From the NCBI GenBank assembly GCA_964016885.1, contig OZ024742.1:251038001-251102000 (forward strand): 64,000 bases of DNA. The letters are read 5' to 3'. A program made the translations under genes and the position numbers. The DNA comes from Eledone cirrhosa (taxonomy: Eukaryota). Positions within the stretch are counted from its first letter, which is position 1. Each line of letters starts with the position of its first letter. Shown here in pieces: positions 16,513 through 45,949 of the stretch. The notes under the pieces were generated by a model. It had not been told where the DNA came from, ran no database searches, and worked only from the letters and a program-made list of their open reading frames with translations.

Positions 16513-16532
16513 AGATAAATAGATAGATAGAT

Positions 16533-19500
16533 ATCTTTCTTTATTTGCCACAGGGGCGTACAAAAATGGGACATTACAAGATGTGACGGCGGGGGTTTTA
16601 CATAAAATCTTTAACAATGATAAATAACAATAAACTATATAAAAATAAAACAATTGAAATCCCCATGGGGCAGGGGGGCTACTGTGGGGTTGTTTTACAC
16701 CCCGTGGATAGAACAACACCAGGAACACGTTTTGTAGGTGTTCCCGTCTTCCCTCTATTTATCTTCCTCAACCTACAGGTTTATATATAGAGAAGGCCCA
16801 TTCACCTGGGCCATTTTTGCCACATTCACCCACCTTTCAGCGAATTTACTTGGGTGTAGCACCTCTCTCTCCACTCTCACCTTCCTTCTGAAGTGATACT
16901 TAAAGAAGGGGATAAGTTGTTGTCCGGAGAGAAAGGTACTTGCCCTCAGTCCTTTTAACCTCGTCCACCATATTACCTATTTCGCCATAGCCACCAGACA
17001 GAGGAAGACCGGGGTGATCCTCACAATGGACTCGGCTGACAACTGGATGCGTCCCACACGTGACAGTAGCTGTTCGACATAATTCCACAGGTCAGTCACC
17101 CCTAGGCACTGAACAATTGCGTGCAGAATGGTTTCGATGTCCTGCTCGCATCTTGGACAGGTCCTTTTGGCAGGATCTCTGCCAGGGCGTCCGTGCCTGT
17201 ACATTTTGTCTCGAACTGGTAGAGCTCCTCGGTAGCACTGCCAGGCCAGAGACCTCTGTAAGTTATCCATAGGCCCTGGAGGGAAAGTCCTCCCAAACAG
17301 ACTGGTCAGTTCGTCTTCCTTGATGCCTAGAGTTTCCCCGAGAACGTCGTCACACATATCCTCCAGTAATCCCCTATAGAATGTCGAAGTGGAGTCTCCG
17401 CTGATTGGTAGAGGGCTGTGAGCGCCTGAAGGCACTCGAGGTGCCAGGCACACATTTTCGGTCTTCGCTTGGCCCAGGACTGCAGCTCTGTTAGTGAGAC
17501 GAGTTGTGGAAGAGGTTGTCTCACAAACGACAGCCACACTGGTTCACCGGTCAGGAACACCTAGAGATGGTGTAGCCTCAGCGCGTATTTGTGCATCTTC
17601 AGCCACGGCATGCCCAGCCCTCCGTTAGAAGGGTGTTGACAGAAGGGTGTTCCAGAGGAACTTGAAGAGTAGGCGTTCTATTTTGGTGAGGTATTCGCGG
17701 GGACAAGGCATGATTGTCAAGCGGTAGTAGATGACGGACACTATGCAAGTGTTGCTACCTCCGCTCAACCTTTCAAGGAGAGTTTGCACTCAGCCCACTT
17801 CTAGGTGAGTGCAAACACCTTCGCCGTGACCTCGTTCCAGTTCTTGTCCACCTAGAGGTCTAAACCAAACCAGACTCCGAGCAATTTCACCGGTCCTTCC
17901 GTCCAGCATCCAACGACACTGTCGGAAGGCATGTGCCGAGTTGCAAACCGACAGACTTGTTTGGGTTTAGTTTTGCTCCTGTCAACGTTTCATATTCCTG
18001 TAATAGGTCGCCGATTACCCCGAGGTTTCCGACACCATTACAGTTATGTCGTCAGCATAGGTTGGCGCTGCTTTCCGCAGTCCTGGTTCGATCAGGATGC
18101 CCTGCAACAGCTTCAACATCCGCAGTAATGGCTCAAGAGTCAGTACATACAGAATGGAGGAGAGAGGGCACCTCTGACAGATGGAACGCATGATTTGGAA
18201 TGGCTCCGATAGGTAGCCATTCACCTTGACTGCCGAGCAGATGCTGGTGTGCATGGCAGCGATCCAACCTCTGAAGACAGGACCAAAGCCGGCCGCCTTG
18301 AGAACCGCTTCCAAGTATTGATGGTCGACCTTATAAAATGCCTTAGACTGATCTAAATTGATCAGAGCCCCACCAAAGCCAGGTTTACACCCTACTTCTC
18401 TATGATGTATTGCATGAGGTGGAGGTTGTCGTGTATGGACCTGGTAGGGATTGCAGACGTTTGCGCTTTCCCTACCAGGTTCTCGACGACAAGCGCCAGC
18501 CTCACTGCTAACACCTTGGCCAAAATCTTTAACTCTGTGTTGAGCAGAGTTATGGGCCTGAAATTGCTTATCTCATCCCCCTTGTTCTCATCTTTCCTGA
18601 TCAGCATTACTACGCCTCTGCCTACAGAACTGGGAATCCTCCCGTTCTGTTGCCAGTCACAGTAGACCGCTTCAAGGATGCCAGAGAACAAGTCTGGCAT
18701 GCCTATGTAAAACTCATAGGGTAGACCATCTAAACTGGGTGACTTGCATTTCCCACAGCGGCATAGGGCATCTTCTACTTCGCCCGCTGTGATCGGCCTT
18801 TTGCAGCTCTCCGCATCCGTGCTCGAGAGTTGTGGTATGCCGTCGAGTTAGGAGCTGAAGTCCATCACCTCCCTTGACGTACCGCTTTGCCCGAACAGTT
18901 GTGAAAAATGCTGCTGGAAGGCCGTGCACATCTGCTTGGACTCAAGTAGAATGCATCCATCTTTGTCTTGCCACTTTTCGCCTCTACGACTCAAGCCCAG
19001 CTAACAGCTTTGGCTCCCTCGTTTCTTAGAGCACGTGTTCTACTTCTGACAATACAACCTTCGTGTTTCACGTTGAAGAACTGGTCTAGTGCCGTTCTCG
19101 CCGCTAGCACGTCAGCTGTACTGCCATTCCTAAGTGCCTCTTCTACTTTAGCTACAAGTTCCTTTTCGGTTTTGTTTTTTCTAAAGCTAGTTCCTTGCTA
19201 AATGCTATCGATTCTATACTAATTGCTCTCTTGAGAGAGCTCCAACACCTGTTGTTGACGATCGCCCCCATCAACTGGCACTTAACTAAGGTGCTAATCC
19301 ATTTACTGTAAGCCTTACGTGCCGGAAGCGACATGTTTAGCTTCCAGTATCCGGGTCCCTGTCTATGTGTTCTGTCAAGGTTGACTACGCAGATAACTAA
19401 TTTGTGGTCTGAATAGGCAACCATGTGTATTTGTGGACAGCTTAATGTTTCCTTATCATTCTGTCTAATTAAAAATCTATCTAAATACGATATAAAAGAC

Positions 19501-22212
19501 CTAGTGCGGTTGCTCCACATCCACAGTGGTACACTTGGGAAGTCTAGTCGATATCTATCAGCCAGTTGGAATTGGCTGATGAGATTTTTGAGGCTATTAC
19601 ACACCCCTTTATTATCACAAGCTCCTACATAGTCCCAATGTGCATCTAAGATGGCATTCCAGTCCCCCGCTAACACTAAGGAGTGAGATGTTCCCAGGAA
19701 TGGCTCCAGGCACTTGAAGAACTCTGGTCGCGATGTCCTATTCGGGGAATATACGGCCACCAGTCTGAAAGCTCCACTTTCACTACCATTCACGTCCAGG
19801 ACCACCAGGCTGCCCTCCGGGTCCAAGTGAATCGTTTGTGCTTTGAGATCCAAGTTTTTTCCAAACAGAACACAACTCCCCCTCCCCCTCCTGGCTGACA
19901 GAGAGATGCGTAGATCTCAAAGTCATCGAACATGGGGGTTAGCTGCTGCTTGTCGTGAATCCTGGACTCGGTGATGGCTATCACATCTATACAATGTGAC
20001 CTGAGATCATTTAAAAGTTGACCCTGTTTCCAGGGCATGCCCAGGCCACATACATTCAAACATCCAACTTGTATAGTCGCCATGTTGGGGAAGGAGAATT
20101 AGGGAGAGAAAATGCAGGAACACTTACCTTTTCTTTTCCTGGAGGTTGGGTTGTTCGATCTCCATGTCCAGATTGGGGGTGTTTGGGGAGGGAGGGAATC
20201 CTTTTAGCAGGACACGGTTAAGGGGTTTTTGGCAAGGGGGGGCCCACATCATGTGGGAAGGTCTCTTTCAATGTTTCATGTTGTAGGGTTGTTACCCTGA
20301 TAAGTTTGAGGTTTGGGGGTGGGTCGTTTATGGGAAGGTTTTCCCTTCCGTTTGGATAGTAGGGTCCTTTCGAACAGTTTCTATTAGTTCTTTGTTGTTT
20401 TATGTATATGTAATGTGTTTTGTTTTTTATGTATACTGTTTCTGTTTGTAGTTTTCTTTTTGTGGTTGGGATTTGTGATTGTGGTGGTGTGGGTGTTTGT
20501 TTTGTTAGTGAAGTGTTTGGTTGTGTTGGGGGGGATTGTGTTGTTGGTGTGTTTGTCGTTTGTGGCGGTGTGTTTATGGTGGGGTTGGGTGTGTGCGTGT
20601 TTTCTGTAGATGTTTTTGTTTTTGTTTTTTTGTCTCTTTTTTGTTTTTTTGGATTTTTGGGGTTCCTCTTCATTCTCACTTGGAGATGTTGAGGTTCCAG
20701 TATCTGAGACTTAAGAATCAAGGCTAGATGGGAGGGGTATGTTGTGTGCTGGAGTGTTTGTGCAGGTGTTTGTGGAAGTATTTGACAGGGAGGGAGGAGG
20801 CAATGGAGGGTTTTTCAGTGGGATTTTGTGTATGTGGTTGTCTCTGGTCTGTGGTGGTGTGGGAGTGGATGTTGCAGGTTTTTGTGTTATGTTTGGTTTG
20901 GGGTGTTGATGTTGGTGTTTTGGTGTTGGTAATAACACCTTGTTTGTCCTCGGTCTGTTTAAGAGAGGGCAAAAGGCCTTTAAAAGTGTGGTTTTCCCAC
21001 ACTTACGGCACTGAGGTCTTTTCCCCTCCACTAAAATGGAGATGACATCTTCCTCAAGGACGATCCTGTCCGGGATTTTCTCAACTCTCTCTGTCCTCAT
21101 TTGTACCAGAACCTCGATGCAGGTTCCAAACTAGTTATTCCGGTCTGTCCTGTCCACAGATAGGAGGGTGTCTTCATACTTCTTCAGGATGCAGCATAGG
21201 ATCCACCATATGTTGACCTCCGCTGGGATCCTGGTTATTTTTATTTTGTATGTGGGGTAGAAGATGTGTTGATCCGTTTTTATTGGCTGAACCGAGTGTT
21301 TTTGAGCCAGAGTTTCGCTCTTAAAGAACACTGACACACTTCCATACTGTTTAGCTCTTTGAAGGTATGCCACGTCTGGCTTGATATCTTTTAGTGCAGT
21401 TTCAATAGTGCTTGTTGGGAGGAGTGTTATGGGTTTTTTGGTAATGATGTCAACTGTTCTGTAGATCAGTTTCTTTTTCTGTGTCATCTCTCTTACTTGT
21501 GAGGGTATGTGTATGTGCGGAGTGTCTCCCTCAAATGTCACATAGTTGGAAGCTTCTTCCAAATATTGGGACTTTTGGGAAATGTCCATGGGGTAATATT
21601 TAAAATCCTGTTGCTTAGCAACGGTTGCTACAAATGAATTTTTGTTATTGTTGTTGGTGGTGGTGATGATGGTCTCATTCGTTGTGTTGCCGCTGATTCC
21701 TTTTGTTGTATTGTTGTTGTTCTCATTTATTGTGTTGTTGTTGTGTTTGTTGCTTGTGGTGGTGTTAGTATTTGCTACACATTCTTCCTTCTGTGTGTGG
21801 ATATATGTGATGTTTATGACGTCAGGCGTGTTCAGATGCTTACAAGTAACTGAAGCTTGTTCCTCTTCTAAATGTTGAGGTGATAATGTTGGCATTCCTT
21901 TGTCCATGTCTGCTACTATCTGCTGGTCAAGTAGGCATGGCTTTCCCTTCCCATCTTCTTGTTTTGACAAAGAAGTAGGTGCCTTTGCTTCGGCCGTTTT
22001 TTAAAAATTGATGTGTTTTGCAAAAATATTTTCGAAAATATGTTGGATGTTTTTTGCCCTGAGGGGCACGATATTTTGGGAGACTGACCAGATCAAAATT
22101 TGACCTGTCGGTCCCTCTATAAATTGGTATAAAAATAAAAGTTCACAATGACGAATTTGTAAAGAAATTTAAAAAAAACTTACCAAGCAAGTTTAACACA
22201 TGTGCCCATCCC
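16533..22212 (-). mobile_element. Tx1-clade LINE copy B1, full length but degenerate (ORF1 ~21970-20124, ORF2 20083-16773)
   Basis: APE motifs GCLNVCG, AITES, GDWN, YLDRF, SDH; RT FRPITLLN, YADD; ORF1 knuckle CRKC..C; both ends at GATA repeats. Confidence 0.93.
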
Positions 22213-22230
22213 AGATAGATAGATAGGTAT

Positions 22231-25200
22231 ATTTCTTTATTAGCCACAAGGGCGCAAAAGAAAAGGGGACAGAACAAAAACATGGCGGGGATTTTACATA
22301 CAATCGTGTAAAAAATATGAAACAAACAATTATAACAATCAAAATCCCCAATAGGGGGGAGGCGCCACAAATGAGTTGTTTAATACCCCACTGCGAGTGC
22401 TCCTTTCTTCCTTTTGCTCTCTTCTTCAGCCTACAGGTTTATATACAGAGAAGGCCCAATCACTCAGGCTATTTTTGTCACATTCGCCCACCTTTCAGTA
22501 AATTTACTGGGGTGCAGTGCCTCTCTCTCCACTCTGATTCACCTTCTAAAGTGGTATCTAAAGAAGGGAATGAGTTGTTGTCTGGAGAGAAAGGCATCTG
22601 TCCTCAGTCCTCTCAATCTCGCCCACCATATAACCTCTTTCACCATAGCCACTATACAGAGGAAAACCACCTTTCTTTTGTTTTTGAAAGAAGTTGGCGG
22701 TTTGATCCTTACTATGGACTCGGCAGTCAACTGTATTTGTCACATACGCAACAGTAGTTGTTCCACATAGTTCCACAGGTCGGTTACGCCCGGGTAGTGT
22801 ACAATTGCATGCAGGACTGTTTCAATGACCTACGCGCATCTTGGACACGTCCTCTTGGAAGGATCCCTGCCAGGGCGTCCGTGCCTGTAGATCTTGTCAC
22901 AAACTGATAGAGCTCCTTGGTAGCACTGCCAGGCCAGGGACCTCTGGAAGTTGTCCATGGATCCCGGGCGGAGAGTCCTACCAAACAGACTGGAGAGTTC
23001 GTCGTCTTCAACGCCTAGAGTCTCTCCGAGCACGTCATCGCCCTTGTGACGTACTAACTCTCTACAGAATGTCGAAGTGGAGTCTCCACTGATTGCCGTG
23101 CCCGCTTGACAGAGGACTGTGAGCGCCTGAGTGCATACAATGTGCCAGGCGCCCATCTTCTTCAGTCTTCGCTTGACCCAGGCCTGCAGCTCTCTCAGCG
23201 AGACAAGTTGCGGGAAGACCTGTCTCACAAACAGTGTCCGCACCGGTTGGGGTTCGGTGAGGAATACCTGTAGATGCCGTAGCCTCAGCGCATGCTTCCG
23301 CATCATCAGCCACAGCATTCCCATCCCTCCGTTGGAAGGGTGCTGACAGCAGACGGATCTCCTCACCAGTGGAGCCTGCTTGTTCCAAAGGAACTGGAAG
23401 AGCATGCGTTCCATCTTGGTGAGATGTTCCCGAGGACAAGCCATGGCGGTCAAATGGTAGTAGATGACGGACGCTATGAAAGTGTTTGCCATCTCCGCTC
23501 GACCTTTCAAGGATAGTTTCCACTCTGCCCACTTCTGAGTGAGCGCAAATACCTTGGCTGTGACCTAGTTCCAGTTTTTCTCCACATGGAGGTCCGGACC
23601 AAATCAGACCCCGAGCAATTTCCCTGGTCCGGCCATCCAGCGTCCGACGACGCTGTTGGACAGCATCGGTTTGCTTCTCCACGTTCTGAGTTGCAGACTT
23701 GTCCGGGTTCAGTTTTGGTCCTGTGAGCTTTTCGTATTCCTTCAGTAAGTTGCCGATCGCCCCGATTTCGGAGGCTTCCGACACCATTATGGCTATGGCG
23801 TCGGCATAAGCCAACGCTGCTTTCCGCAGTCCTGGTTCCAACGGAATGCCCTGCAGCAGCTCCAACTTCTGCAGTAATGGCTCTAGAGTCAGTATGTACA
23901 GAATGGAGGAGAGAGGGCATCCCTGTCGGATGGAACACATGATTGCGAACGGCTCCGATAGGTAGCCATTCACCTTGACCATCGAGCAGATGTTGGTGTG
24001 CATTGCGGCGATCCAGCCTCTGAAGACGGGTCCGAAACCGGCCGCCTTGAGAACCACTTCTAAGTATCATTGGTCGACCCTATCGAACGCCTTAGACTGA
24101 TCTAAATTGATCAGAGCCCCACCAAAGCCGGGTTTACACCACACCCTCTCTATGATGTATCGGATGAAGTGGAGGTTGTCGTGTATGGACCTGGTCGGGA
24201 TTGCACACGTTTGTGCTTTCCCTACCAGGTTCTCGACGACAAACGCCAACCTCGTTGCCAACACCTTGGCCAATATCTTTAACTCTGTGTTGAGCACAGT
24301 TATGGGCCTAAAGTTGCTTAGTTTGTCCCCCTTGTTCTTGTCTTTCCTGATCAGCGTTACTACGCCCCTTGCCTGCAGAACTGGGAATTCTCCCGTTCTG
24401 CTGCCAGTTGCAGTAGATGGCCTTGAGGACACCAGAGAACAAGTCCGGCATGCCTATGTAAAACTCATAGGGTAGACCATCTAGACCGGGTGATTTGCGT
24501 GTCCCACAGCGCCCGAGAGTGTCCCGTATTTCATTGGATGTGATCGGTCTTTCACAGAACTCGACATCCATGCTTGAGAGACAGGGCAGGCCGTCGAGGT
24601 ATGAACCGAAGTCCATTGCCCCGTTCGACGCACCGCCAGTCTGCCCGAACAGTTGCACAAAGTGCTGCTGGGGTCAAGTAACACGCGTCCATTTTGGTCT
24701 TTCAAAGACCAAATCGTGGACTTGTTGCTACTTTTCACCTCTGCCACTCGGGTTCAGCTAACAGCTTTCGATCCCTCGTTTCCAAGAGCACGTGATTTAC
24801 TTCTGACCATGCAGCCTTCGTGTTCCGTGTCAAAGAACTGGTCCAGTGACGTTGTCGTTGCTAGCACTCTAGCTATGTTGCCACTCCTGGCTGTGATCGG
24901 TCTTTCGCAGAACTCGGCGTCCATGCAGGTTGCTTAACTAATCTACTCATCCGTTGACTGTAGGCTTTACGTTCAGCTTCCAGTATCCGGGTCCTTGTCT
25001 ATGTATTCTATCACGGTTGACTATGCAGATGACTAGTTTGTGGTCTGAATAGGCATTTGTGGACAGCTTAACATATTGTTTCTCTCTCTAATAAAGAACC
25101 TGTCTAAATACGATCTAGATGTCCCGCTGCGGTTTGTCCACATCCACTGTGGTGCAGTCAGGAAATCTAGTCGATACCTATCGGCCATTTGGAATTGGCC

Positions 25201-27940
25201 GATTAAAGTTTTGAGGCTGTTGCAACCCCCTCTACTGGGACATGATTCTAAATAGTCCCATTGTGTGTCTAGGATACCATTCCAGTCCCCCACTAAAAGC
25301 AAGGAACGAGACGTTCCCAGAAAAGACTCTAGACGCTTAAAGAAGTCTGGCCGCGATTGCCCGGGTGGGGCATAAATAGCCACCAGTCTGAAGGCTCCAC
25401 CTCCAACACTGTTCACGTCTAGGACTACCAGTCTACCCTCCGGGTCCAAGTGTACTTGCTGTACTTCGACGTCCAGGTTTTTCCAAAACATGACAGCCCC
25501 CCCCCCCCCCCCAGGCTGACAGAGATGCGTAGATATCAAAGCCATTGAAGATGGGGGTTAGTTGCTGCCTGATGTGGATCCTGGACTCGGTGATGGCTAT
25601 CACATCAATACCGTGTGACCTAAGGTCGTTTAAAAGTTGGCCCTGTTACCAGGGCATCCCTAGGCCATGCACATTCACGCTTCCAACTCGTAAACTATCC
25701 ATGTTGGTGGAGAAGAGTTGGCGAAAAAGGACGAAAAGGTGCACTTACCTTTTCGTTTCCTGGAGATCGGGTTGTTCAATCTCCATTTGGGTGCTGGAGG
25801 GGGTGTTGGGTGGGGAAACATTTTAACAGGACGAGGTTGATGGGTTTCTGGCAGGGGTTGCCCACGTCCTGCGAAAATTTATTCTTCAGGTCACTATAGG
25901 TCTCCATAGAAACCCTTATAAGTTTAAGGTGTGGCGACGATTCTGCTTTAACGAAAGTTTTGCCCTCTGTCTCCACCTTGGGGTTTTGGGAGATGACCTC
26001 CATCAAACTCTTGTTGTTCGTGTTGATGTATATGTATTGTTGTTTGTGTTTTTGTTGTGTTGTTATTGTTTGTTGTTCGTTTGGGTGTTTTCTTTTTATA
26101 GTGAGTGCTTGTGTTTGGGGTGGTGTTGGTGTTGGTTTTGTTGGTAGGAGGATGTTTGACTGTGGTGTTGTTTGTGTTGTTGTTTGTGCCTGTGGTTGTG
26201 TGTTGGTGTTGGTGATTGGAGCTTTGGGGTTTTTGTGGTGTCTCTTTTTTTGTTTTTTGGATTTCCGAGGATCTCCTTCTTCTTCATTTAAAGGAAAAGC
26301 AGCTTCATCTGTTGTTGAATCATCATCGCCAGGAGTGTGGGGTAGGGGTATGTTGTGTGGTGGTGGTGTTTCGGTGTGTGTGTTTGTGGTAGTGTTTGAT
26401 GGAGTGGGATGGGTGGGGCTGTGTTTTTTCTGTTGTTGTTGGTGTGTTTGCTTGTTTCGTGTGTTGCTGTTGTTGTGCTGGTGGTTGTTTTGGTGTTGGT
26501 GTTGGTAACAGTGTTTTCTTTTGGATTGTTTTGGTTGAGCATGTTTGTAAAGGGCGGGAGGCCTTTAGATGTGTGGTGTTATTACAACGAAAGCAATGTG
26601 GTTTTCGTCCCTCAAACCGAAATGCTTATGTGGCTGTTGTTGTCCACCAGCACTTTTTCTGGTATTTTGGAGATTTTCTCTGGGTTCATTTGCACCAGAA
26701 TCTCCAAATTTTTCCAGACCACGTGTGTCTGGTTGACCTTTTGATGGAGAGAATGGTGTCTTTTCTCTCCTCTAAAAATCCTGCCAATATCCACCAAATA
26801 TTAATATTTGGTGGTATGTTTGTAATTCTGATTTTTGTTGTCCTTTTTCCCAGGTATGTAGGGGAAAAGGGTGTATTTTTTTTTACAGTATTGGTGTCAC
26901 TGAGTATCTTGGTGCAAGGGCCTCGCTTTTGAGGAGTACCGAAATACTCCCGTACTGTTTGGCCCTCTGCATAAAGTCAATGTTTGGCAATATCTCCTTC
27001 AAGGTTGCCTCAATTTCTCCTTGACTGAGGAATGCTAGTCGTTTTGTTTCATTTGAAACAGTTCTGAAGGTAATTGTCCTTCGAAATGTTTCCAGACGAA
27101 TCTCTGGGGGTGAGTTTATCTGAAATTCACCGTTTTCACCGAAAGTGATAAACTCCTTTGCTTCAGAGAGCATCTGTTTCGCATTGGAGATATCGAGATC
27201 CTTGAACTCTTGTGTCTTGATGACTGTTTGCGCAAAAGTTTTTTTGGTGTTGTTGTTATTGTTGTTGTTGTGGTTGTCGGTTTTTCCGTTTGTAGTTGTG
27301 TCAATGGTTTTATTTTCTGTTGTTTTTTGGTGTGTTGTACCATGTGTGGTTCGATCTTGTTTTTATTTTTGTTGTCCATATTGGCTCCATGGTGACGCCA
27401 ATACATGCAGAGTTAGAGGTAACGTTATTATTATTTGTGACTGTTTTTGTAAAAGTGATTATTTTGGTGTTGATGTTGTTGTTGTTGTGGTTGTCGGTTT
27501 TTCCGTTTGTAGTTGTGTCTATTGTTTCATTTTTTGTGGTTTTTTATGTCTGTTGTAAGCTGTGTGGTCCATCTTGTAAGTTGCATTTTTCGGTTTCTTG
27601 GCAAAACAAAACTTTGTTGTCACTATTTGTCTCCATAGACTATGTAGGCAGAAGTTGCGGTAACGTTACTCTCTGCCTTTCCCTCTCTACTTTCTTCGTC
27701 AGCGTTCGGTAGCGTTGCATCTACTAAGCTAACCATTATCAATAGCAAAAATATAAAACTTTTGAAATTTTCTCAAAAATAAAATTTCCGCCCCTGTGGG
27801 GCGAAAACTGAGATTACCACCCAGCTCAAATTCAGCCAGGGTGTTAATCTATCAAACAATATAAATTTTCACACAATAAATTCTGTTTTTGTATAGAAAA
27901 TTTTACAAAAACTTACCGTCGATCTACCGCACGTCCGGTC
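22231..27940 (-). mobile_element. Tx1-clade LINE copy C1, full length, degenerate (ORF2 ~25702-22431)
   Basis: ORF fragments with GDWN, YLDRF, SPGLDG, LDQSKAFDRV, IRQGCPLS; ORF1 fragments 25776-27737; GATA repeats at both ends. Confidence 0.93.
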
Positions 27941-27960
27941 GATAGAGAGATAGATAGATA

Positions 27961-28643
27961 TGTTTCTTTATTAGCCACAAGGGCACAAAAGAAGGGGACA
28001 AATACAAAGGGGGAAGTTTACATACAATATAAAACGTGTAAAATACTATCACAAATGCAATTTAAAAATTAATCGATTTTCCACAATAGGGGGATACATT
28101 ACATATGGGTAACACATACCCCCGAAAAAATGTGCAACCCTCATCTCCAGGAGTACGAAGAGTGAGTACCCCTTTCCTTTCTTCCTCTTTTTCCTCAACC
28201 TACAGGCTGATATAGAGAGAAGGCCCTTTCACTCGGGCCATTCTCGCCACTTTCACCCACCTTTCATAAAATTTGCTGGGGTACAGCACCTCTCTCTCTC
28301 CATCCTGGTTCTTCTTCTAAAGTGATATTTGAAAAAAAGAATCAGTTGTTGGCCGGAGAGAGAGGTGTCTGACCTCAGCCTTTTTAACCTCGTCCACCAT
28401 ACAACCTCTTTCGTCATAGCTATCACACAAAGGAAAACCGCCTCTCCTTCGTTTTTGAAGAAGGGTGGCGGTTTGATCATCACCATGAACTCGGTGGTCA
28501 ACCGGATTGGTCCCACCCGCGACAATAGTCGTTCCACATAGCCCCACAGGTCGATAACGCCCGGGTTGTGTACGAATGCGTGCGCGACGGTTTCTTCGTC
28601 TCGCAAGCATCTCGGACAGATCTTTTTCGAAGGGTCCCTGCCC
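27961..28643 (-). mobile_element. Tx1-clade LINE copy A2 (5'-truncated)
   Basis: Close match to 15012-15670; GATA/GACA tract at the 5' junction. Confidence 0.92.
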
Positions 28644-28678
28644 ATAGAGTGGGAGAGACAGACAGACAGAGCGATAGT

Positions 28679-28733
<55 letters not shown>

Positions 28734-28735
<2 letters not shown>

Positions 28736-34308: not shown

Positions 34309-34342
34309 TAGACAGAAAGAGAGATAGATAGATAGATAGATA

Positions 34343-34961
34343 TATTTCTTTATTAGCCACAGGGGCACAAAAGAAGGGGACAAATACAAAGGGGGAAGTT
34401 TACATACAATAAAAACGTGTAAAATGTTATCACAGATGGAATTTAAAAGTTAGTCGATTTTCCCCAATAGAGGGAGACAGTTTATATGGGTAACACATAC
34501 CCCCGAAAAAAATGTGCAACCCTCATCTTCAGGAGTACGAAGAGCTTGTACTCCTTTCCTCTCCTCCTCCTTTTCCTCAATCTACAGGCTGATATAGAGA
34601 GAAGGCCCATTCACTCGGGCCATTCTCGCCACTTTCACCCACCTTTCATAAAACTTGCTGGGGTACAGCACCTCTCTCTCCATCCTGATTCTTCTTCCAA
34701 AGTGGTATTTGAAAAAAAGAATCAGTTGTTGGCCGGAGAGAAAGGTGTCTGACCTCAGCCCTTTCAACCTTGTCCACCATACAACCTCTTTCGCCATAGC
34801 TATCATACAAAGGAAAACCGCCTCTCCTTCGTTTTTGAAGGAGGGTGGCGGTTTGATCATGACAATGGACTCGGTGGTCAACTGGATTGGTCCCACCCGC
34901 GACAATAGTCGTTCTACATATCCCCACAGGTCAGTGACGCCCGGGCAGTGTATGAATGCGT

Positions 34962-34962
<1 letters not shown>
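34343..34962 (-). mobile_element. Tx1-clade LINE copy A3 (5'-truncated)
   Basis: Family A 3' UTR; ORF2 end ..RVNGPSLYISL* at 34582; 5' junction directly into (GATA)n. Confidence 0.92.
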
Positions 34963-35029
<67 letters not shown>

Positions 35030-35031
<2 letters not shown>

Positions 35032-35868
35032 TTCTTTATTAGCCACAAGGGCGCAACAAGAAAAGGGGATAATACATAGACATGCCGGGGATTTTACATA
35101 CAGTCGTGTAAAAAATATAAAAACAAACAATTTCAACAATCGAAATACCCGTCGATAGAACAACCCTCAACTCCAGGAGCGTGTTGTGCAAGTGCTCCTT
35201 TCTTCTTTTTGCTCTCTTCCTCAACCTACAGGCTTATAAACAGAGAAGGCCCAATCACTCGGGCCATTTTCGCTTCATTCACCCACCTTTCAGTAAATTT
35301 ACTGGGGTGCAGTGCCTCTCTCTCCACCCTGATTCTCCTTCTAAAGTGATACTTAAAGAAGGGAATCAATTGTTGTCCGGAGAGAAAGGCATCTGTCCTC
35401 AGTCCTCTCAACCTCGTCCACCATATAACTTCTTTCACCATAGCCACCGTACAGAGGAAAACCGCCACTCTTTCGTTTTTGAAAGAATCTGGAGGTTTGA
35501 TCCTTACTATGGACTCGGCAGTCAACTGTATTTGTCCCATACGCGACAGCAGTTGTTCTGCATAGTTCCACAGGTGGCTTACTCCCGGGAAGTGTACAAT
35601 TGCGTGCAGAACTGTTTCAATGTCCTGCGCACATCTTGGACACGTCCTCTTGGAAGGATCCCTGCCAGGGCGTCCGTGCCTGTAGATCTTGTCACGAACC
35701 GGTAGAGCTCCTCGGTAGCACTGCCAGGCCAGGGGCCTCTGGAAGTTGTTCATAGGTCCCGGGCGGAAAGTCCTACCAAACAGACTGGTGAGCTCATCGT
35801 CTTCGACGCCCAGAGTCTCTCCGAGCACGTCGTCGCCCTTGTAACGTACAATCTCTCTATAGAATGTC
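35030..35868 (-). mobile_element. Tx1-clade LINE copy C3 (5'-truncated)
   Basis: Near-identical to the C2 3' end; ORF end ..IGPSLFISL* at 35226; flanked by (GATA)n. Confidence 0.93.
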
Positions 35869-35927
<59 letters not shown>

Positions 35928-35928
<1 letters not shown>

Positions 35929-38900
35929 TGTTTCTTTATTTGCCACAAGAGCACACAACAAATGGGACATTACAGGATGTATGGTTGGGATTATACATTT
36001 AAGCGTGTAAAAAAAGTTTTAACAGTTATAAAATATTAAATAACAATTGAAATCCCCAATAGGGGGAACGTTACAATTGGGTTGTTTTACACCCCCGTAG
36101 ATAGAATAACCCTCAACTCCAGGAGCATCTTTTGTAAGTGCTTCTGTCTTCTTTCTTTTGTCTTCTTCAATCTACAGGTTTATATACAGAGAAGGCCCAA
36201 TCACTCGGGCCATTTTCTCCACATTCACTCACCTTTCAGCAAATTTACTGGGGTGCAGCACCTCTCTCTCCACTCTCATTTTCCTTCTGAAGTGGTATTT
36301 AAAGAAGAGAATGAGTTGCTGTCCAAAGAGGAAGGTGTCTGTCCTCAGTCCTTTTAATCTCGTCCACCATATTACTTCTTTCGCCGAGGCCACCAGACAA
36401 AGGAAAACCGCCTCTCCTTCATTTTTAAATGAAGGCGGTGGTGTGATTCTCACGATGGACTCGGCTGTCAACTGGATTTGTCACACACCTGACAGTCACT
36501 GTTCGACATAGTTCCACCAGTCGGCCATCCCCGGACACTGTACAATTGCGTGCAGAACTGTTCCAATGTCCTGCTCGCATCTTGGACAGGTCCTTTTGGC
36601 AGGATCCCTGTCAGGGCATCTGTACCTGTAAATCTTGTCTCAAACTGGTAGAGCTTCTTGGTAGTACTGCTAGACCAGAGACCTCTGGAAGTTATTCATA
36701 GGTCCTGGATGGAAAGTACTCCCGAACAGACTGGCCAGTTTGTCCTCTTTGACGCCGAGAGTCTCTTCGAGAATGTTGTCGCTCTCATCCTCCACTAACC
36801 CTCTATATAATGTTGACATGGAGTCGTTGCTGATTACTGTGCCTGCCTGATAGAGGACTGTGAGTGCCTGAAGGCACTCGATGTGCCAAGCGCCTATTTT
36901 CGGTCTTCGCTTGACCCAATATTGCAGGTCAGTTAGCGAGACGAGTTGCTGAAAAGCTTGTCTCACAAGTCAGGAATATCTGGAGATGGCATAGCCTCAG
37001 CGCGTGTTTGCGCATCATCAGCCACGGCAGGCTCAGCCATCCGTTAGAAGGGTGTTGGCTGCAGATGGATCTCCTCACCAATGGAGCCTGTTTCTTCCAA
37101 AAGAACTTGAAGAGTAGGCGTTCTATTTTCGCGAGATGATCATGGGGACAAGGCACGACTGTCAAGCGGTAGTAGATGATGGATGCTATGTAAGTGTTCG
37201 CCCTCTCTGCTTGACCTTTTAAGGAGAGTTTGCACTCAGCCCACTCCTGGGTGAACTCAAATACCTTCGCCGTGACCTTGTTCCAGTTTTTCTCCGCCAG
37301 GAGGTCTGGACCGAACCAGACCCTGAGCAATTTCACCGGCCCTTCTGTCCAGTGTCCAACAACGCTGTCAGGCGGCATCAGTTTTGTCGCTCCATGTGCT
37401 GAGTTGTCCGGCTTCAGTTTTGCTCCCGCTTCGTTTTTCGTATTCCTCTAGTAAGTTGCCGATCACCGAGATTTCCGAGGTTTTCAACACCATTACGGTC
37501 ACATCATCAGCATAAGCCGTCATTGCTTTTCACAGTGTCTTGGATCCATCATGATGCCCTGCAACAGCTTCAACTACTGAAGTAGTGGTTCGAGAGTCAG
37601 TACATACAGAATGGAGAAGAGAGGGCATCCCTGGTGGATGAAACGCAGGATTTAAAATGGTTCCGATAGGTAGCCATTCACCTGAAGATGGGTCCAAAGC
37701 TGGCTGCCTTGAGAACCGCATCCAAGTATTGATGGTCAACCCTATCGAATGTCTTAGATTGATCTAAATTGATCAGAGCCCCACCGAAGCCAGGTTTACA
37801 CCCTATCCTCTCTATGATGTATTACATGAGGCGGAGGTTGTTATGTATGTACCTGGTCAGGATTGCACACATTTGTGCTTGCCCCACGAGGCTCTCGACG
37901 ACAAGTGCCAGCCTTGTTGCTAACACCTTGGCCAAAATATTCAACTCTGTGTTGAGCAGAGTTATGGGCTTGAAATTGCTTATGCTGTCCCCTTTGTCCT
38001 TGTCTTTCCTGGTCAGTGTTACTACGCCCCGACTTACAGAATACAGTAATTTCCGGTCGTGTGTTGATACGAAATCCATTTCCCTCGACTGTTATAATGT
38101 GCAGCGTCCTTCAGGTACTGTGCTTTATTTGATACTAGCAGCAGTACCCAGCGTTGCCTGGGTAGCTAAAATAATATCTGCTTTGATGAAAAGTTGTTGA
38201 TCTTAGCGACTGCTTCTCGATGACTCATCTATGGCCACACACAGGCCATGCGGCGGAGGGTGGTGATTACCGCTATCACTGAGAAACGCCGGTGACTGAC
38301 GAAGGGGCATGCTGGGGGAGGGAGTTTCGAATTTGAACGAAATCGGTTGAAAAATGTGGGAGCTAGAGCCGAAAAGGCGGAAATTTGAGCCAAAAGGTGG
38401 TATTTTCGACTATTTAAGCGGCTGCGACGCCGTTCCTGAACAAAAAATCCCAAATGTAAAGCCACTTTAAGACGTGAAATAATCAGATCTAGCGTAGTGT
38501 AAAATTTGAACAAAATAGGTTGATTAATGTGGGAGCTAGAGCCGAAAAAGTGGAAATTTGGGTCTAAAAGCGGTATTTTTGAATATTTAAGCAGCTGCCA
38601 CGCCGTCCCTGAACAACAAATGCAGGATGTGCAATGATAAATTCTATTTTGCTTTAAAATTTGAACGAAATCAGTGGTAAAATGTGGGAGCTAGAGCCCA
38701 AAATCTTATTTTTCGATACCTAAAAAAAGGTGACCCCCCCTATTGATTTTTATCTGCAGAATGACCCTGGAATAAAAAAAAAACGATACGCTGATATATA
38801 GAAAACACTCCCGATGACTAATCCATGAGCCTATAAAGTTTCATGAAAATCGATCGTAAGATGTAGGCTCCTATAGGTAATACACAGACACACACACACA

Positions 38901-39506
38901 TACTTAATTTTATATATATACAGATGTCTATTTCTATGAATTCCGTCTCCTTGGCAACTGTCGCTACAAATTTTTTTTTTTGTATGTTTTGGGTTTTTAT
39001 TGTCACTTGTGCTGTTGTTGTTTTTATTGTTATTATCATTTGGTCGTTATTTTTATTGTTGTTGGTGTTGTTGTTTTTCACTTGATTTGCGTTCATGTTG
39101 TTGTTGTTGTTTTCGTTTGTGGCATTTGTCTTTGTGTTGTTTTTTCCAGCTGTTGAGTTGCTGTTATTGATTTCCGTAATATCTTCATTATTAAAAGTTT
39201 TCATGCGATTGTCTGTTGACACTGTTGTCATAGTGACATACGGCATAGCCATAATGTTTTCTTTTACACTCTCTTGTCCAGGAGCATTCTGACACTTAAA
39301 TTTTACAGATAATATTTTTTCAATTTTACAAAATTTCCAAGCAAATTCTCGCCCCTAAGGGCTTGAAAATTAGAGAAACCAACCACCTGGAACCTCACGT
39401 GGTTGGTTTATCTTTAAAACAATGTAAAATAAAATTTACAAATATCTGATTTTCTGGTAGAAGATTAAGCAAGAACTCACCAGCGAGCTGTCACACGTCT
39501 ACCCAT
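35928..39506 (-). mobile_element. Tx1-clade LINE copy D1: both ends present, large internal deletion (ORF1 fused to RT at ~38040), Helitron inserted in ORF1
   Basis: ORF2 pieces 36172-38040; ORF1 N-terminus 38925-39290 and 38041-38134; 5'-end motifs shared with other full-length copies. Confidence 0.88.
38135..38924 (-). mobile_element. non-autonomous Helitron with internal ~160-180-bp tandem repeats
   Basis: Minus strand begins A|TCTGTATATATATAAAA and ends with hairpin TACCCAG-GCAACG-CTGGGTA then CTAG|T. No TSD. Flanks rejoin in frame as Tx1 ORF1 (EIDI/SNKAQYL). Confidence 0.88.
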
Positions 39507-39554
39507 AAAGATTGATAGATATGTTTCTTTATTGATTGGTAGATTAGATAGATA

Positions 39555-42500
39555 TATTTCTTTATTTACCATAAAGGCATAACAAGAAGGGACAAATACA
39601 AAGGGGGAGTTTACATACAATCGAGTAAAAAGGGTATAAAATGAAAATAATCGAAAACAACCTCAAAAGGGAGGGGACGTGTGCAATCCTTTTCCCGGGG
39701 AGCACATGGAGAAGGTGCTCCCCTCTCCTTCACTTCTTTACCTACAGGATGGTATACAGAGAAGGCCCATTTACACGAGCCATTCTCGCCACTATCACCC
39801 ACCTTTCATAAAACTGCCTGTGGCCAAGCACCTCTCTCTCCATTCTTATCCTTCTTCCGAAGTGATATCGGAAGAAGTAGACCAGACTATGGCCAGAGAG
39901 GAAGTTGCCTGACCTCAGACCTTTCAATCGTGTCCACCAAACAACCTCTTTCAACATGGCTATTACGCACAGAAAAACCGCCTTTGCTTCCTTTGTGAAG
40001 AGGGGAGGCGGTTTGATTGTCATCACGGAATCGGCGGTCAATTGAATCGGCGCCACCCGCGACAGCAGTCGTTCGGCGTAGCCCCACAGATCAGCCACGC
40101 CCGGACATTGCACCAATGCGTGCGCAACGGTTTCTTCGTGACGCACGCATCTAGGGCAAATCTTTTTTGAGGGATCCCTGCCCAGGCGCCCGTGTCTGTA
40201 GAGCCTCTCTCGAACGGGTAGAGCCCCCCGGTAGCACTGCCAGGCTAGTGACTTCTGGAAGTTGTCCATTGGTCCCGGGCCGAAAGTCCTACCGAACAGG
40301 CTGGCCAATTCGTCCTCTTCCATGTCCAGCGACTCTCCAAGGGTGTCATCGCCCCTGCTAGCCACCAGCCCTCTATAGAATGATGAGGTGGATTCTCCAC
40401 CGATGGCCTGGCCCGCTTGCCAGAGAGCCCTGAGCGCCTGAGCACACTCAGTGTGCTAGTCTCCCAGTTTTCCGGATCTATGCTTGACCCAGGACTGCAG
40501 CTCGGTGAGTGAGACGAGTCTCGGAAAGGCTCGTTTCACGAACGGAGCCCACACCGGTTGACCAGTGAGGAATACCTGTAGGTGCCGTAGCCTTAATGCG
40601 TGCCTACGCATCATCAACCACGGCATCCCCAGCCCTCCTTTCGAAGGTTGTTGGCAGCAGATGGATCTTCTCACCATAGGAGGGCGCTTCTTCCAAAGAA
40701 ATTGGAAGAGCATGCGTTCCATGGTGGTGAGTGTTTCCTTAGGGCAAGGCACGACAGTCAGGCGGTAGTAAGTGACGGACGCTATGTAAATGTTCGCCAC
40801 CTCCGCCCGGCCTTTTAGGGACAGCTTACACTTGGCCCATTTCTGGGTTAGTGCAAACACCTTGTTCGTAACCTCGTCCCAGTTCTTTTCCACCTGGAGG
40901 CCCGGTCCAAACCAGACCCCAAGCAACTTTACCGAGCCCTCCGTCCAGTGTCCGACGACACCGTCGGGAGGCATCGGTCTGCTTCTCCACGTTCCGAGTT
41001 GCAGCCCGATGGATTTTTCCCGCTTCAATTTCGCTCCTGACAACCTTTCGTAATCCTCCAGTAAGGTACCGATCGCCTCGATTTCCGAGTCGGTCGATAC
41101 CATTACTGTTACGTCATCGGCGTAGGCCGACACCGCTTTGCTCAATCCTGGTTCCAGGGGGATACCCTGCAACAACTCTAACTTCCTCAGTAAAGGCTCG
41201 AGAGTCAATACGTACAGAAGGGAGGAGAGAGGGCACCCCTGTCGAATGGATCGTGTGATTTCGAACGGCTTCGAAAGGTAGCCGTTCACCTTGATCCTAG
41301 AACAGATGTGGTTGCTATGTAAGGCAGTGATCCAGCCTCTGAAAACAGGACCGAACCCAGCCGCCGCTAGCACCGCATCCAGGTAACCATAGTCGACCCT
41401 ATCGAAGGCCTTAGACTGATCCAAGTTGATCAGGGCCCTACCGAAGCCGGGTTTGTTGCCAACTCTCTCTATGATGTATCGCATGAGGTGGAGGTTATCG
41501 TGAATGGACCTGGATGGGATAGCACATGTCTGCGCATCTCCCACCAGGCTACCCACGACAAGCGCCAACCTCTTTGCTAACACCTTGGCCAAAATCTTTA
41601 ACTCTGTGTTTAGCAGGGTTATGGGCCGAAAATTATTTATACTATCCCCCTTGTTCTCGTCCTTCCTCACCAGCGAGACTACGCCCTTGGCTACAGAACA
41701 AGGAATTCTCCCGTTCTGCTGCAAATTCCAGTAGACCGCTTCGAGGAGTTCGGAGAAGAAGACCGGCATTGCTAAATAAAGTTCGTAAGGTATACCATCG
41801 AGACCTGGAGATTTGCGTCTGCTGCATTGGCTCAGCGCATCTCCGATCTCATCAGCCGAGATTGGTCCCTCGCAGGACTCTGCCTCTTCGCTCGAGAGAT
41901 GCGGCAGGCCGTCGAGATATGGACCGAAATCCACGTCCCCGCCCGGACCCTCGCCTCCCCCGAATAATCGGGCAAAGTGCCTTTGAAAGGCCTCGCACAT
42001 CTGCTTAGGCTCCCGGATCACCCGTCCATCCTCGTCTTGCAACGACCGGATGGTGGATCGATTTCCACTCTTAGCTTCTGTCACGCGGGCCCAGCCAACG
42101 GCTTTGGCCCCCTCATTACCTAGAGCACGTATTTTACTTCGAATGACGCAGCCTTCGTGCTTTGCATCGAAAAACTGGTTCAAGGCCGTCCTCGATGCCA
42201 GCACTCTGGCCACATCTTCGCTCTTGATTGCCTCTTCTAATTTACCTGTTAATTCTTTCTCGTTTCTATTCCTATCGGCAGCTAACATCTTGCTATAACT
42301 TATTGATTCTGTTCTAATCTCTCTTTTGAGAGATGCCCACCATCGGTTGTTGACGATTGCACCCGTCAACCTCTCCTTAACTAATCTGCTAATCCGGTTT
42401 CTGTAAGTCTTTTTTGCCGGTAAAGACAAATTTAGTTTCCAGTAACCGGGACCCTGTTTATGTGTTTTCTCGAGATTGACTACGCAGGTCACTAATTTGT

Positions 42501-45445
42501 GATCCGTATAGCCAACCGTGCGCATTTCTGGACAGCTTAATATGTCCCTATCCTTACTTCTAACTAAGAATCTATCTAAGTACGATCTAGATTGACCACT
42601 GTGGTTTCTCCAAGTCCAGGTAGGCACAGTTGGAAAGTCTAGTCGATATCTATCGACCAAGTTAAAACGGTCGAGTAACCCCTTGAGGCTGTTACACCCC
42701 CCCCCCTCTATTAGGACATGCTCCTGCATAGTCCCAACGTGCATCTAGGATGTCATTCCAATCCCCCGCTAGAAGCAGGGAACGCGACGTTCCCAGAAAA
42801 GTCTCCAAACGCTGGAAGAAGTCGGGCCGTTCAGCTCCGAAAGGGGAGTAGACGGCGACCAGTCTCAAGGCTGCACCTTCACTACTGCCAACGTCTAGCA
42901 CCAACAAACGACCCTCCGGGTCCTAGTGAACAACCTGTACGGCAAGACCCAGGTGTTTTTGCAGCAGTACGACAACCCCACCCCCACCTCCAGGTTGACA
43001 GAGAGATGCATGCACCTCAAAGTCATCGAAGGTAGGGGCTAGCTGCCGCACGACGCTGATCCGAGTCTCACAGATAACCATTACATTTATACCTCATGAC
43101 CTGAGGTCATTTAGAAGCTTTGCTTGCTTCCAAGTTGAGCCCAGGCCATGTGCATTCAAACATCCTACTCTTAACACATCCATGTGGGCGGCAGAGCCAA
43201 AGGAGAGTGTAGAGACCTACCTTTCTGCTTCCCGGGGTTCGGGTCGCACGACTTCCATGGGGTCGGGGGTGTTGGGTGAAGGGGTGTCTTGTGGTGGTGT
43301 GGGGTCGTCAGTGTGTGGTGGGGTTGGGGTGTTTGGAGTTGTGTTGGGGAGGGGAAGGGGAGGGGGAAAGCTTTTTAGTAGGACGCGGTTTATGGGTTTG
43401 ACAGAGGGTGGTCCTACGTCCTCCTTAAAATCCTTTTTTAGTTTTTGGTAGAGGTTCATTGGGATCTTTATTAATTTTAAATGTGGGTAGTTTTCTGAAG
43501 AAACAAAGTTTACACCTTCGGTTTGTACCGAAGGATTATTGTTTATGAGTTCATTTAATTTATTATTGTTTCTGTTGATGTAAGTATAGTGTAATGTCTT
43601 TTTTTCGGAGGGTGTGAGTGTTTCGAAGAGGGGAGGGGCAGGTTTGGTTTTGTTTGTTGCTGGAGGGATGTTTTGTGTTTTGTTGGATTGTGTTGACATT
43701 TGGGTGGGGGTTGTTTGGCCTTGTGTGTTTTGCACATGTTTTCTTTTTTTCCTTTTAATCTGTCTGAAGGACTCCGTTTCTTCCTCCGAATTCGTTGGGT
43801 TATCTTCAGTGTTGGAGGGAAGAGGTATGTTTGCTGGTAATGTTTCCGTGTTGGTTTTCTTTGTGGGGGAGATGGATGTCACTATGTTAGACTGTGTTGT
43901 GTGTTGTGGCTGCGGTGGTTGTGTTGTTTTATTGAGTGAGGGGTTGGGTGGGCCTGTATTTTGTTTTGGGGTAATGTGTTGTGACTGTTTGTGTTGCGGT
44001 GGTGGTGTAGTTTTACTGAGGGACGGGTTGGGTGGGACTGAGTTTTGTTGTTTGTTTATCTGTTGTGGTGGTGGTGGTGGAACTGGTGTTGGTAGCAGGG
44101 TTTTCTTTTTGTTGAGTTGGGGACAAGCGGCCTTCAGGTGCCCTCTGCCTGCACAGATATGACAGGACGGCCTTCTCCCCTCCACGCTAATGTTTATATA
44201 CCCGTGGCCCTCTAATAGGATTCTGTCGGGTATTTGGGCGATGCGTTCAGGCTTCATTTGCACTACCAGCTCTATACCTGTTCCGCTGAACGCATTGCCT
44301 GTGGTTTTCCCAATGGAAATCACGTTGTCATTCACTGGATCGATGAAGCCAGCTATGAGCCAGCAGTAGTCCACATCTGGTATCATTGCATCCAGCTATA
44401 TGCGTTGAGTTCTTTTACCCATATAAGATGGATAAAAGGTAAAATTTTTCGAACGAATCGGTGACAAAGCACATTTTTTTGCCGCCGATTCGTTCTTCAT
44501 AATAATCGCTAGGCTTCCATACAGTCTGTCTTTTCTTATGAAAGTGGTTTCATTAAGTACTTCTGTAAGTACTGTTTTGATTTCTGTTTGAGTTGGCTGT
44601 TCAGGTTTTTTTGAAGTGTTGTTGATGGTGCGGAACACGACCGTTCGACTTTCAATGTCTTTGGTGAGTTCTTGAGACATTTTTACCGATAAAATACCAT
44701 TCTCTCCTTCACTTATGTATTGTTTGGCGTCTGTGATTCTTTGTGCCACATCTGAAATATTTTCAGGTATATATGTCAAAGATTTCTTTGTTGTTTGTGC
44801 AAATGAAATCTTGTTGGTGTTGACTTTGTCGTCTGCTTTGCTTTCTGTTATGATGTTGTTTTCAAATGTTATTTTTGTGTTTGTTGTGTCTTTGTTTGTG
44901 GTATTAATATTGTCATGCAATTTTTCAAATTTTTTTTTTTTCGTTGTTGGAATCCATGTCCAGATTTGTGTTTTCGTCATTTTTCTCCGCAGATTCGTCT
45001 GTTTTTATTTTATTTTTTCCTTCCTTCTCTATGACGTTAGTTGGGAAGGAAGGGGGGACTAAAGCGTGCGAGATTACAACTCTTACCGTTGTCCCCCCAC
45101 CACTATTTTCGTTAGCTTCGTTTAACATTTCTGTCAGACGATTGAAATTTTTTTTGCCACAAAATTTTTAAAAACAGGTTTTTCACCCCTAAGAGGGGTA
45201 AAGATGAGCTGACCCACCGCCTGACAGTTCAGACGGGGGGTCAAGCTACACAATAGTATCAAAATTAAACAAAATTTTTAAAAACAGGTTTTTCACCCCT
45301 AAGAGGGGTAAAGATGAGCTGACCCACCGCCTGACAGTTCAGATGGGGGGTCAAGCTACACAATAGTATCAAAATTAAATTTGAACTTACAAAATTTCCG
45401 CAATAAATTTGAACAAAACTTCTGCGCGAAGTGAATTACATCTAC
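39555..45445 (-). mobile_element. Tx1-clade LINE copy E1, full length (ORF1 ~45128-43217, ORF2 43183-39742 with a few stops/frameshifts)
   Basis: ORF1 knuckle CHICAGRGHLKAAC; 762-aa ORF2 segment with RT motifs incl. AYADD; ends ..RVNGPSLYTIL*; GATA tracts on both sides. Confidence 0.94.
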
Positions 45446-45477
45446 GCTGTAGAACAGACGACAGCTAGATTAATTTG

Positions 45478-45509
45478 GTAGATTAGATAGATAGATAGAT
45501 AGATAGATG

Positions 45510-45603: not shown

Positions 45604-45604
<1 letters not shown>

Positions 45605-45895: not shown

Positions 45896-45949
<54 letters not shown>

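Follow-up and report, generated by a model that had tools for sequence, protein, structure and literature searches.

The DNA analysed here is a stretch of 64,000 nucleotides (nt) of contig OZ024742.1 from Eledone cirrhosa, referred to below as the window. Much of it is occupied by copies of long interspersed nuclear elements (LINEs) with two open reading frames (ORFs), ORF1 and ORF2, nested head to tail on the minus strand (Table 1). Computation predicts that ORF2 of these elements is enclosed by a conserved, family-specific and covarying long-range helix. The existence of this helix is far more secure than any function proposed for it.

The elements are microsatellite-targeting LINEs of the L1/Tx1 type. 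Full-length copies are flanked at both ends by (TCTA)n or (ATT)n and are nested head to tail, as seen by inspection, which is the pattern of a target preference. ORF2 of an intact relative matches the Pfam domains Exo_endo_phos, RVT_1 and zf-RVT, and ORF2 of the copy E1 matches RVT_1 and zf-RVT; the nearest solved structure is human L1 ORF2p (E 7e-53). The separate ORF1 carries a zinc knuckle, C-x2-C-x4-H-x4-C, read in the E1 translation, and a Pfam search of ORF1 gave no match. Named homologues of both proteins come from Argonauta hians and three Octopus species. Those of ORF1 in Octopus and Argonauta were recovered by a HMMER search; a word-based protein search with ORF1 found nothing. Placement in Tx1 rather than L1 is probable and rests on the architecture and the microsatellite targeting, the ORF2 tree covering the families of this genome only.

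Four copies in the window (B1, C1, C2 and E1) reach the junction of ORF1 and ORF2, and the ORF2 frame is broken in all four. The window holds ten copies, which belong to about five related subfamilies and hence are not ten independent cases. In the whole genome (3.0 Gb searched), a pattern for the start of ORF2 finds 10,511 copies. Twelve representatives, one copy per family or subfamily with both ends of ORF2, were chosen from 30 such loci and 54 longer stretches. Their ORF2 sequences are 68-97% identical.

A preliminary description, made from the window alone, proposed that the whole of ORF2 is an intron, with a 5' splice site (donor) on the ORF1 stop and a 3' splice site (acceptor) on the ORF2 stop. 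The four donors lie where it placed them on the minus strand: AAAG/GTAAGT at 20127, 25748 and 32235, and AAAG/GTAGGT at 43220. In each of the four copies the donor is formed by the last arginine codon of ORF1 and its stop. The motif AGGTA[AG]GT occurs four times on the minus strand of the window, every time at one of these stops, and once on the plus strand. Since it is restricted on the minus strand to ORF1 stops, it is not there by chance within the window.

All 12 representatives end ORF1 in G/GTA[A/G]GT. The last codon is AGG or CGG, the next is TAA or TAG, and GT follows, in 12 of 12; for comparison, 35 of 94 other ORF1 arginine codons end in GG. The donor is constant although the ORF1 tails cannot be aligned and the spacer between the ORFs varies from 25 to 47 nt. 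Within families, the C2 donor is kept in all of the best 30 genomic matches, and GTAGGT in 26 of 30 sampled E copies. Two single copies outside the 12 deviate, one reading AGG TGA with a donor 4 nt upstream (L129) and the other CAG/GTAATT (L263). With the motif kept in every representative, the donor proposed in the preliminary description is supported as real and under selection at the nucleotide level. Octopod homologues of ORF1 show no clear spliced tail at their ends at the protein level; two of them terminate in GK or GKS, which, judged from the proteins only, would suit a donor in another phase.

The evidence for the helix begins with a scan of each element for partners of its spacer. 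In 11 of 12 families the ORF2 stop region is the best partner among about 540 windows of the same element, and the duplexes in these 11 families reach -33.8 to -54.8 kcal/mol, with z from -3.5 to -7.8 against 300 dinucleotide shuffles. When the scan is reversed and starts from the stop region, the spacer ranks first in eight families, second in three and third in one. Arms pair more strongly with the partner from their own family than with those of other families (0 of 100,000 permutations as strong, p<1e-5). A control with reversed arms agrees with the helix, which also persists in a fold of the entire 3.75 kb in all three families tried (21, 26 and 30 pairs).

At one end of the predicted helix, the final codons of ORF2 and its stop have CAAC-AUG-G as their partner, with the U of AUG bulged. 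At the other end, the donor pairs with a U1-like stretch, CAC[T/C][T/C][G/A]C, 28-37 nt past the ORF2 stop. Compensatory pairs are found at four positions: donor +4 (A-U in C, C1, F1, F2 and H; G-C in E, J and K), ATG+5 (C-G; A-U in E), ATG+4 (G-C; A-U in F1 and F2) and ATG-5 (C-G; U-A in F1 and F2). Conservation of the helix is greatest in the AUG region, with 11-12 of 12 families at five positions.

In 10 of 12 the C at -4 of CAACATG has the G of TAG as its partner, so that CTGTAG/G is accounted for without an acceptor. More generally, the modelled helix would account for CTG, the G of TAG, the G after TAG and the purine run that follows. The acceptor-like CTGTAG and this purine run, which had been read as a splicing enhancer, therefore seem better explained by base pairing with the spacer between ORF1 and ORF2, as one arm of a long-range helix. 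The same does not appear to hold for the donor, whose conservation the pairing does not account for. In 11 of 12 representatives the base at donor position -2 is A, but it is paired in only one of the 12, which argues that the donor is retained for a reason beyond the helix; positions +2 to +4 are unpaired in the three G subfamilies.

Two metagenome scans and one genome scan of other species found no close relative. Nine distant metagenome loci have an ORF1/ORF2 junction, at 25-45% identity. No stop-region helix is seen in the seven that could plausibly be scored at the end of ORF2 or at the last long frame (ranks 74-696); at the other two, L149 and L173, the end of ORF2 is not reached or is uncertain. 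Of the nine, only L144/L145 and L149 have AG/GTAA where ORF1 stops. The helix may be limited to the present lineage.

On the 3' side, all ten CCTGTAG/R sites are found at the minus-strand positions given in the preliminary description. A pyrimidine tract, CCTTCTCT, lies upstream of nine; the tenth (45846) belongs to a copy cut off just above the stop. Conservation of an acceptor across related families fails: the ORF2 stop is TAG in 10 of 12 representatives and TAA in F1 and F2, which lack an AG at the stop and keep the donor. Intact copies of ORF2 exist in family F, and it is the most abundant family counted, with 6,682 3' ends by pattern, followed by G with 2,688 and C with 1,075. These counts are rough, as the patterns differ in length between families, and the F pattern failed as a filter and serves as a count only. 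None of the 100 F matches listed has TAG at the ORF2 stop.

The pyrimidine tract codes for Pro-Ser-Leu of a C-terminal motif that is conserved at the protein level in six outside homologues. It becomes Pro/Thr-Thr-Leu in F2 and H, and four of the six outside homologues have Thr at the Ser position. Thus neither the AG (TAA in F1 and F2) nor the tract (lost in F2 and H) is kept across families. Splice-site strength was judged by pyrimidine counts only; by this measure the stop AG is in the top 4-9% of ORF2 YAG sites in C, E, G2, G3, J and K, whereas in B, C1, G and H it comes no higher than the top 21-24%. A competing AG lies 7 nt upstream of the stop AG in six of the ten TAG families.

Joining donor to acceptor had been expected to leave ORF1 unchanged. 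Among the window copies this is true of E1 only; B1, C1 and C2 would gain basic tails of 30, 78 and 27 residues. Across the ten TAG families, the joined RNA would carry unrelated tails of 27-78 residues in six.

In the 3' untranslated region (UTR), the poly(A) signal lies 190-310 nt past the ORF2 stop. Inside ORF2, AATAAA occurs in two of 12 representatives and ATTAAA in one. A local hairpin of the 3' UTR has a covarying stem (GGAGCAC/GTGCTCC, GGAACAC/GTGTTCC and GGAGTAC/GTACTCC); an example lies at 28915-28945 of the window, minus strand.

Table 1. Features of the elements in the window. Positions count from the first letter of the window; a slash marks the putative splice boundary.
Feature	Position	Strand	Remarks
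Nested head-to-tail LINE copies	~14,100..45,900	minus	each with AATAAA, then a (TCTA)n run, at its end
E1, full-length element	39540..45480	minus	AATAAA at 39566; (TCTA)n run at 5' side, short TCTA tail; ends approximate
E1 ORF1	43217..45004	minus	C-x2-C-x4-H-x4-C knuckle; one internal stop
E1 ORF2	39742..43183	minus	endonuclease, reverse transcriptase, zf-RVT; frame broken by stops and a frameshift
E1 donor AG/GTAGGT	43215..43222	minus	last ORF1 codon Arg AGG and TAG stop
E1 predicted 5' arm	43177..43223	minus	donor, pyrimidine spacer, ORF2 ATG at 43183; duplex with 39695-39752, -40.4 kcal/mol
E1 predicted 3' arm	39695..39752	minus	last ORF2 codons, TAG stop, purine run, anti-donor
C2 ORF2	28969..32190	minus	broken; internal deletion
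C2 donor AG/GTAAGT	32230..32237	minus	Arg AGG and TAA stop of ORF1
C2 predicted 5' arm	32184..32238	minus	donor, spacer, ORF2 ATG at 32190; duplex with 28922-28979, -53.6 kcal/mol
C2 predicted 3' arm	28922..28979	minus	ORF2 stop, purine run, anti-donor CACTTGC
C2 AATAAA and (TCTA)n tail	28673..28744	minus	
C1 predicted 5' arm	25696..25751	minus	donor 25748, ORF2 ATG 25702; duplex -40.3 kcal/mol
C1 predicted 3' arm	22384..22441	minus	ORF2 stop ending at 22431
B1 predicted 5' arm	20077..20130	minus	donor 20127, ORF2 ATG 20083; duplex -40.4 kcal/mol, z -4.4
B1 predicted 3' arm	16726..16783	minus	ORF2 stop ending at 16773
CCTGTAG end of a 5'-truncated copy	15250..15256	minus	like ends at 28200, 34582, 35226, 36172, 45846
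C2 second donor G/GTAAGT	34222..34290	minus	~30 nt inside 5' end; 69-nt AT-rich GT..AG stretch
C1 second donor	27849-27916	minus	donor at 27916; 68-nt GT..AG stretch
B1 second donor	22117-22183	minus	donor at 22183; 67-nt GT..AG stretch
Second donor of a truncated copy	39412-39480	minus	donor at 39480; 69-nt GT..AG stretch

If ORF2 were spliced out, genomic copies precisely lacking it might be expected. The preliminary description named their absence as evidence against itself, together with related families that have no AG at the ORF2 stop, and both have now been observed. Two genome screens were made, one on the donor side for ORF1 ends that are not continued by the donor, and one on the acceptor side for starts of the 3' UTR without a preceding acceptor. 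The patterns require an exact ORF1 end or UTR start; they catch the predicted junction of each family, and other junctions only partly. No such copy appears among about 3,850 copies on the donor side, or among 1,078 and 2,694 on the acceptor side. From the donor side, the 95% upper bound on the frequency of spliced copies is 0.08%.

Departures on the donor side number six in B/C (725 with donor), seven in E (292 in all), eight in G (1,427), one in F1 (1,090) and one in J (307). Every one was read, and each can be put down to a point change, a microdeletion, an insertion of unrelated sequence or a match on the opposite strand. On the acceptor side, none of three departures in C (against 1,075), six in G (against 2,688) or 21 in F at the AG nearest to the stop is joined to ORF1. 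A looser acceptor-side pattern gave 203 matches against 61 for a control, and 50 of the 203 were inspected, none of them ORF1-joined. Many of these loose matches come from an unrelated dispersed repeat with CAAAGGTGAAGAAGAGGAAGAA (L279, L289-L291 and others).

Individual candidates for spliced copies were rejected on reading. L068 has point changes, L219 is an opposite-strand match and L035 has an unrelated repeat at the donor. L071-L073 and L296 carry 7-nt AG..AG microdeletions, and L315 a deletion inside ORF2 that runs to the stop, the deleted piece not starting with GT in the relatives compared. L309 and L333 were also checked and rejected. Three C copies, each on a different contig, and one G copy (L071-L073 and L296) have thus lost the ORF2 stop through an identical 7-nt deletion that lies between two AGs. 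A different rearrangement is seen in L085 (1-300, minus strand), where a fragment of ORF1 is fused directly to AATAAA and a TCTA tail via a short shared word; it is a single case in 69 tails checked.

Sequencing reads count neither way. In four runs of unrecorded kind, the predicted junction is not among the 15 of 543 joints shown, nor among the eight of eight shown for run X4 alone, which is not on record as RNA. An ORF1-only RNA would lack the enzyme for copying in cis, and copying by an enzyme supplied in trans is rare for L1. For this reason the missing genomic copies lower the case for splicing rather than exclude it.

Two questions about LINEs are how ORF1 protein is made in quantity and ORF2 protein sparingly from one RNA, and what allows an RNA whose first stop codon is 3.7 kb away from its end to survive. 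In the architecture predicted here, a single covarying helix that contains a U1 site would unite exactly three points, the stops of both ORFs and the start of ORF2. We tentatively favour the reading that its arms loop out ORF2 and keep the two-gene RNA unspliced and shielded from decay, a reading that may well be correct and yet falls somewhat short of being probable. During transcription of ORF2, the donor motif would likely bind the U1 small nuclear ribonucleoprotein. Once the 3' UTR is made, its U1-like stretch would displace U1 by pairing with the donor. Closing of the helix would also mask the AUG of ORF2 together with the AG in its stop, leaving neither splice site free. The fold would shorten the distance between the ORF1 stop and the poly(A) end from 3.7 kb to about 200 nt, and this would shield the RNA from nonsense-mediated decay (NMD). 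Finally, the helix would keep ORF2 translation low until a ribosome ending ORF1 opens it. In human cells, NMD is suppressed by engineered pairing that folds the poly(A) end back onto a stop (PMC2689704), and the donor of the retroelement EVD binds U1 and blocks premature 3' end formation independently of splicing (PMC5580714). The lack of any spliced copy in the two genome screens favours an RNA that is kept unspliced. Several points weigh against the decay shield. The helix is a prediction, family G pairs weakly (z -1.9, with 12 of 300 shuffles as good), and the 12 representatives are related, so that counts across them overstate independence. The bases of the anti-donor are also needed for the local 3' UTR hairpin, which sets the two folds in competition. 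U1 would find few poly(A) signals to suppress in ORF2. Splicing is the simplest explanation of a near-perfect donor, and the joined RNA would rebuild Arg-stop exactly in E, G, J and K, four of the ten TAG families; the GTG at the rebuilding site of these four also pairs in the helix.

The last two points lead to the alternative in which ORF2 is a regulated intron: splicing from the ORF1-stop donor to the AG of the ORF2 stop would give an ORF1-only mRNA, with the helix as a switch. It draws on the invariant donor, the TAG stop of most representatives, the rebuilt Arg-stop and the high pyrimidine rank of the stop AG in six families, and in plant copia elements donor quality outweighs acceptor quality (PMC5580714). 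However, the most abundant family, F, has no AG at the stop, and none of its 21 nearest-AG departures is joined to ORF1. Both genome screens are empty, a rival AG stands upstream in most TAG families, the stop AG ranks less high in B, C1, G and H, and six of ten joined RNAs would gain unrelated tails. The tract follows its coding for Pro-Ser-Leu and changes with it in F2, H and outside homologues, and, as the partner of the donor in the helix belongs to the would-be second exon, the fold would be an obstacle to splicing and not an aid. A regulated intron is thus a serious candidate, if an unlikely one. What stands of the preliminary description is its positions and the selected donor, and its 3' end was likely misread. 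A combined form, a clamp with two states, is unlikely: when closed it would hide donor and acceptor and give a full-length template, and when opened by the 3' UTR hairpin it would let the whole of ORF2 be spliced out as one intron between two stops, giving an ORF1-only mRNA that stays out of reverse transcription. It is doubtful that the helix is mainly a translation device, which hides the ORF2 AUG, is opened by ribosomes ending ORF1 and so couples the two genes, although such a device can hold alongside the decay shield. In its favour, no part of the helix is better kept than the AUG region, a spacer length of 25-47 nt is suitable for reinitiation, and coupling in SART1 needs RNA structure downstream of the stop-start (PMC5972666). 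On this view, Arg-stop, pairing with the 3' UTR and a strong context for the stop would together give the look of a donor; this leaves unexplained the AGG or CGG last codon in every representative and the unpaired A at donor -2. Descent without function, the motifs being by-products of a shared ancestor of all families, is very improbable. It would suit the 26% of four-fold sites that are invariant across nine families, but the donor is unchanged where ORF1 ends and spacers are unalignable and vary in length, and the arms covary. A short intron from the donor to an early AG in ORF2, fusing ORF1 and ORF2 in frame, is barely credible. F, E, G and J do have an in-frame AG a few codons after the start of ORF2, but there is none in C or B, and the piece would be about 40 nt in J. 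The fused RNA, which codes for the enzyme, would moreover be open to copying in cis, and fused copies were looked for in F1, G, J and E and not found.

Parts of this architecture have counterparts elsewhere. HAL1 elements ('half-L1') are ORF1-only derivatives of LINEs; unlike them, no ORF1-only derivative was found here in the donor- or acceptor-side genome screens. In the coat-replicase region of phage MS2, a long-range pairing hides a start codon and is opened by upstream translation. MS2 differs in being a phage RNA that is read by bacterial ribosomes. In Rous sarcoma virus, a pyrimidine-rich stretch after a stop, the stability element, reportedly protects a stop far from the poly(A) tail (PMC4764554, PMC5580461). 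In engineered NMD reporters, likewise, a stop far from the tail is protected by pairing that brings the tail near (PMC2689704). The helix predicted here would differ from the engineered pairing in being natural, covarying, 40-50 nt long and placed over the donor and AUG as well.

Among LINEs, Kibi targets (TC)n and Koshi (TTC)n (PMC4494074), and Octopus vulgaris has 13 recently active L1-Tx1 families (PMC13282606). The present elements resemble these members of the L1-Tx1 clade in having two ORFs, an ORF2 with endonuclease, reverse transcriptase and zinc finger, and insertion into tandem repeats, but unlike Kibi and Koshi they target (TCTA)n and (ATT)n. The portions of PMC4494074 and PMC13282606 consulted make no mention of splice signals or a helix around ORF2, and 'splic' occurs 0 times in the main text of the latter. 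The Ty1/copia element EVD of Arabidopsis is similar in that a conserved U1 site ends the structural gene and could set the ratio of structural to catalytic protein. It differs in being a long terminal repeat element with a short intron, a stop made by splicing and a demonstrated spliced RNA, and the excerpted account describes no fold-back helix (PMC5580714). Human L1 also has a conserved and rarely used donor. Its spliced RNAs, which still encode ORF2, leave genomic copies known as SpIREs, the commonest at about 1.8% of full-length L1 (PMC5860796). The L1 donor, unlike the present one, is part of the 5' UTR and owes its conservation to a RUNX3 site (PMC5860796), and in the present elements no spliced copy was found, with the bound at 0.08%. 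In the literature on Tx1 and other LINEs that was searched, with most subscription journals and Repbase reports outside its coverage, no donor on an ORF1 stop, intron spanning ORF2 or helix flanking ORF2 was found. The element class is ordinary, and its real RNA architecture is apparently undescribed.

A second donor lies 30-45 nt inside the 5' end in B, C1, C, D, F1 and F2 (including the 5' ends of L126 and L128) and in each of the six begins a GT..AG stretch that is AT-rich and 65-69 nt long. It looks like a short 5' UTR intron. The stretch is absent or different in E, H and K. None of 62 full-length C copies lacks it, which excludes only splicing above about 5%. About 18 nt before this donor stands R-ACGTG (window 34310-34290, 27940-27916 and 39500-39480, minus strand). 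We take this to resemble the downstream promoter element of insect LINEs; the initiator would then lie in the target microsatellite.

The families also differ in their targets and arrangement. In a sister group (L124-L137), (ATT)n replaces (TCTA)n at both ends, and some of its copies (L129, L131) seem chimeric, with the 5' part from one family and the 3' end from another. Copies of family J are arrayed in tandem, repeating about every 5.8 kb, and those listed cluster toward the ends of the large contigs (L228-L233). Within the window, the 5' UTR of E1 contains a 110-bp tandem duplication (45159-45379).

Other repeats lie outside the LINE array. A Penelope-like element on the plus strand (4023-5897) has a frame of 624 codons with reverse transcriptase and GIY-YIG domains. 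Fragments of another LINE, with endonuclease and reverse transcriptase pieces, are found on the minus strand at 56787-58357, and a (CAC)n-like repeat of 1.3 kb occupies 61081-62392.

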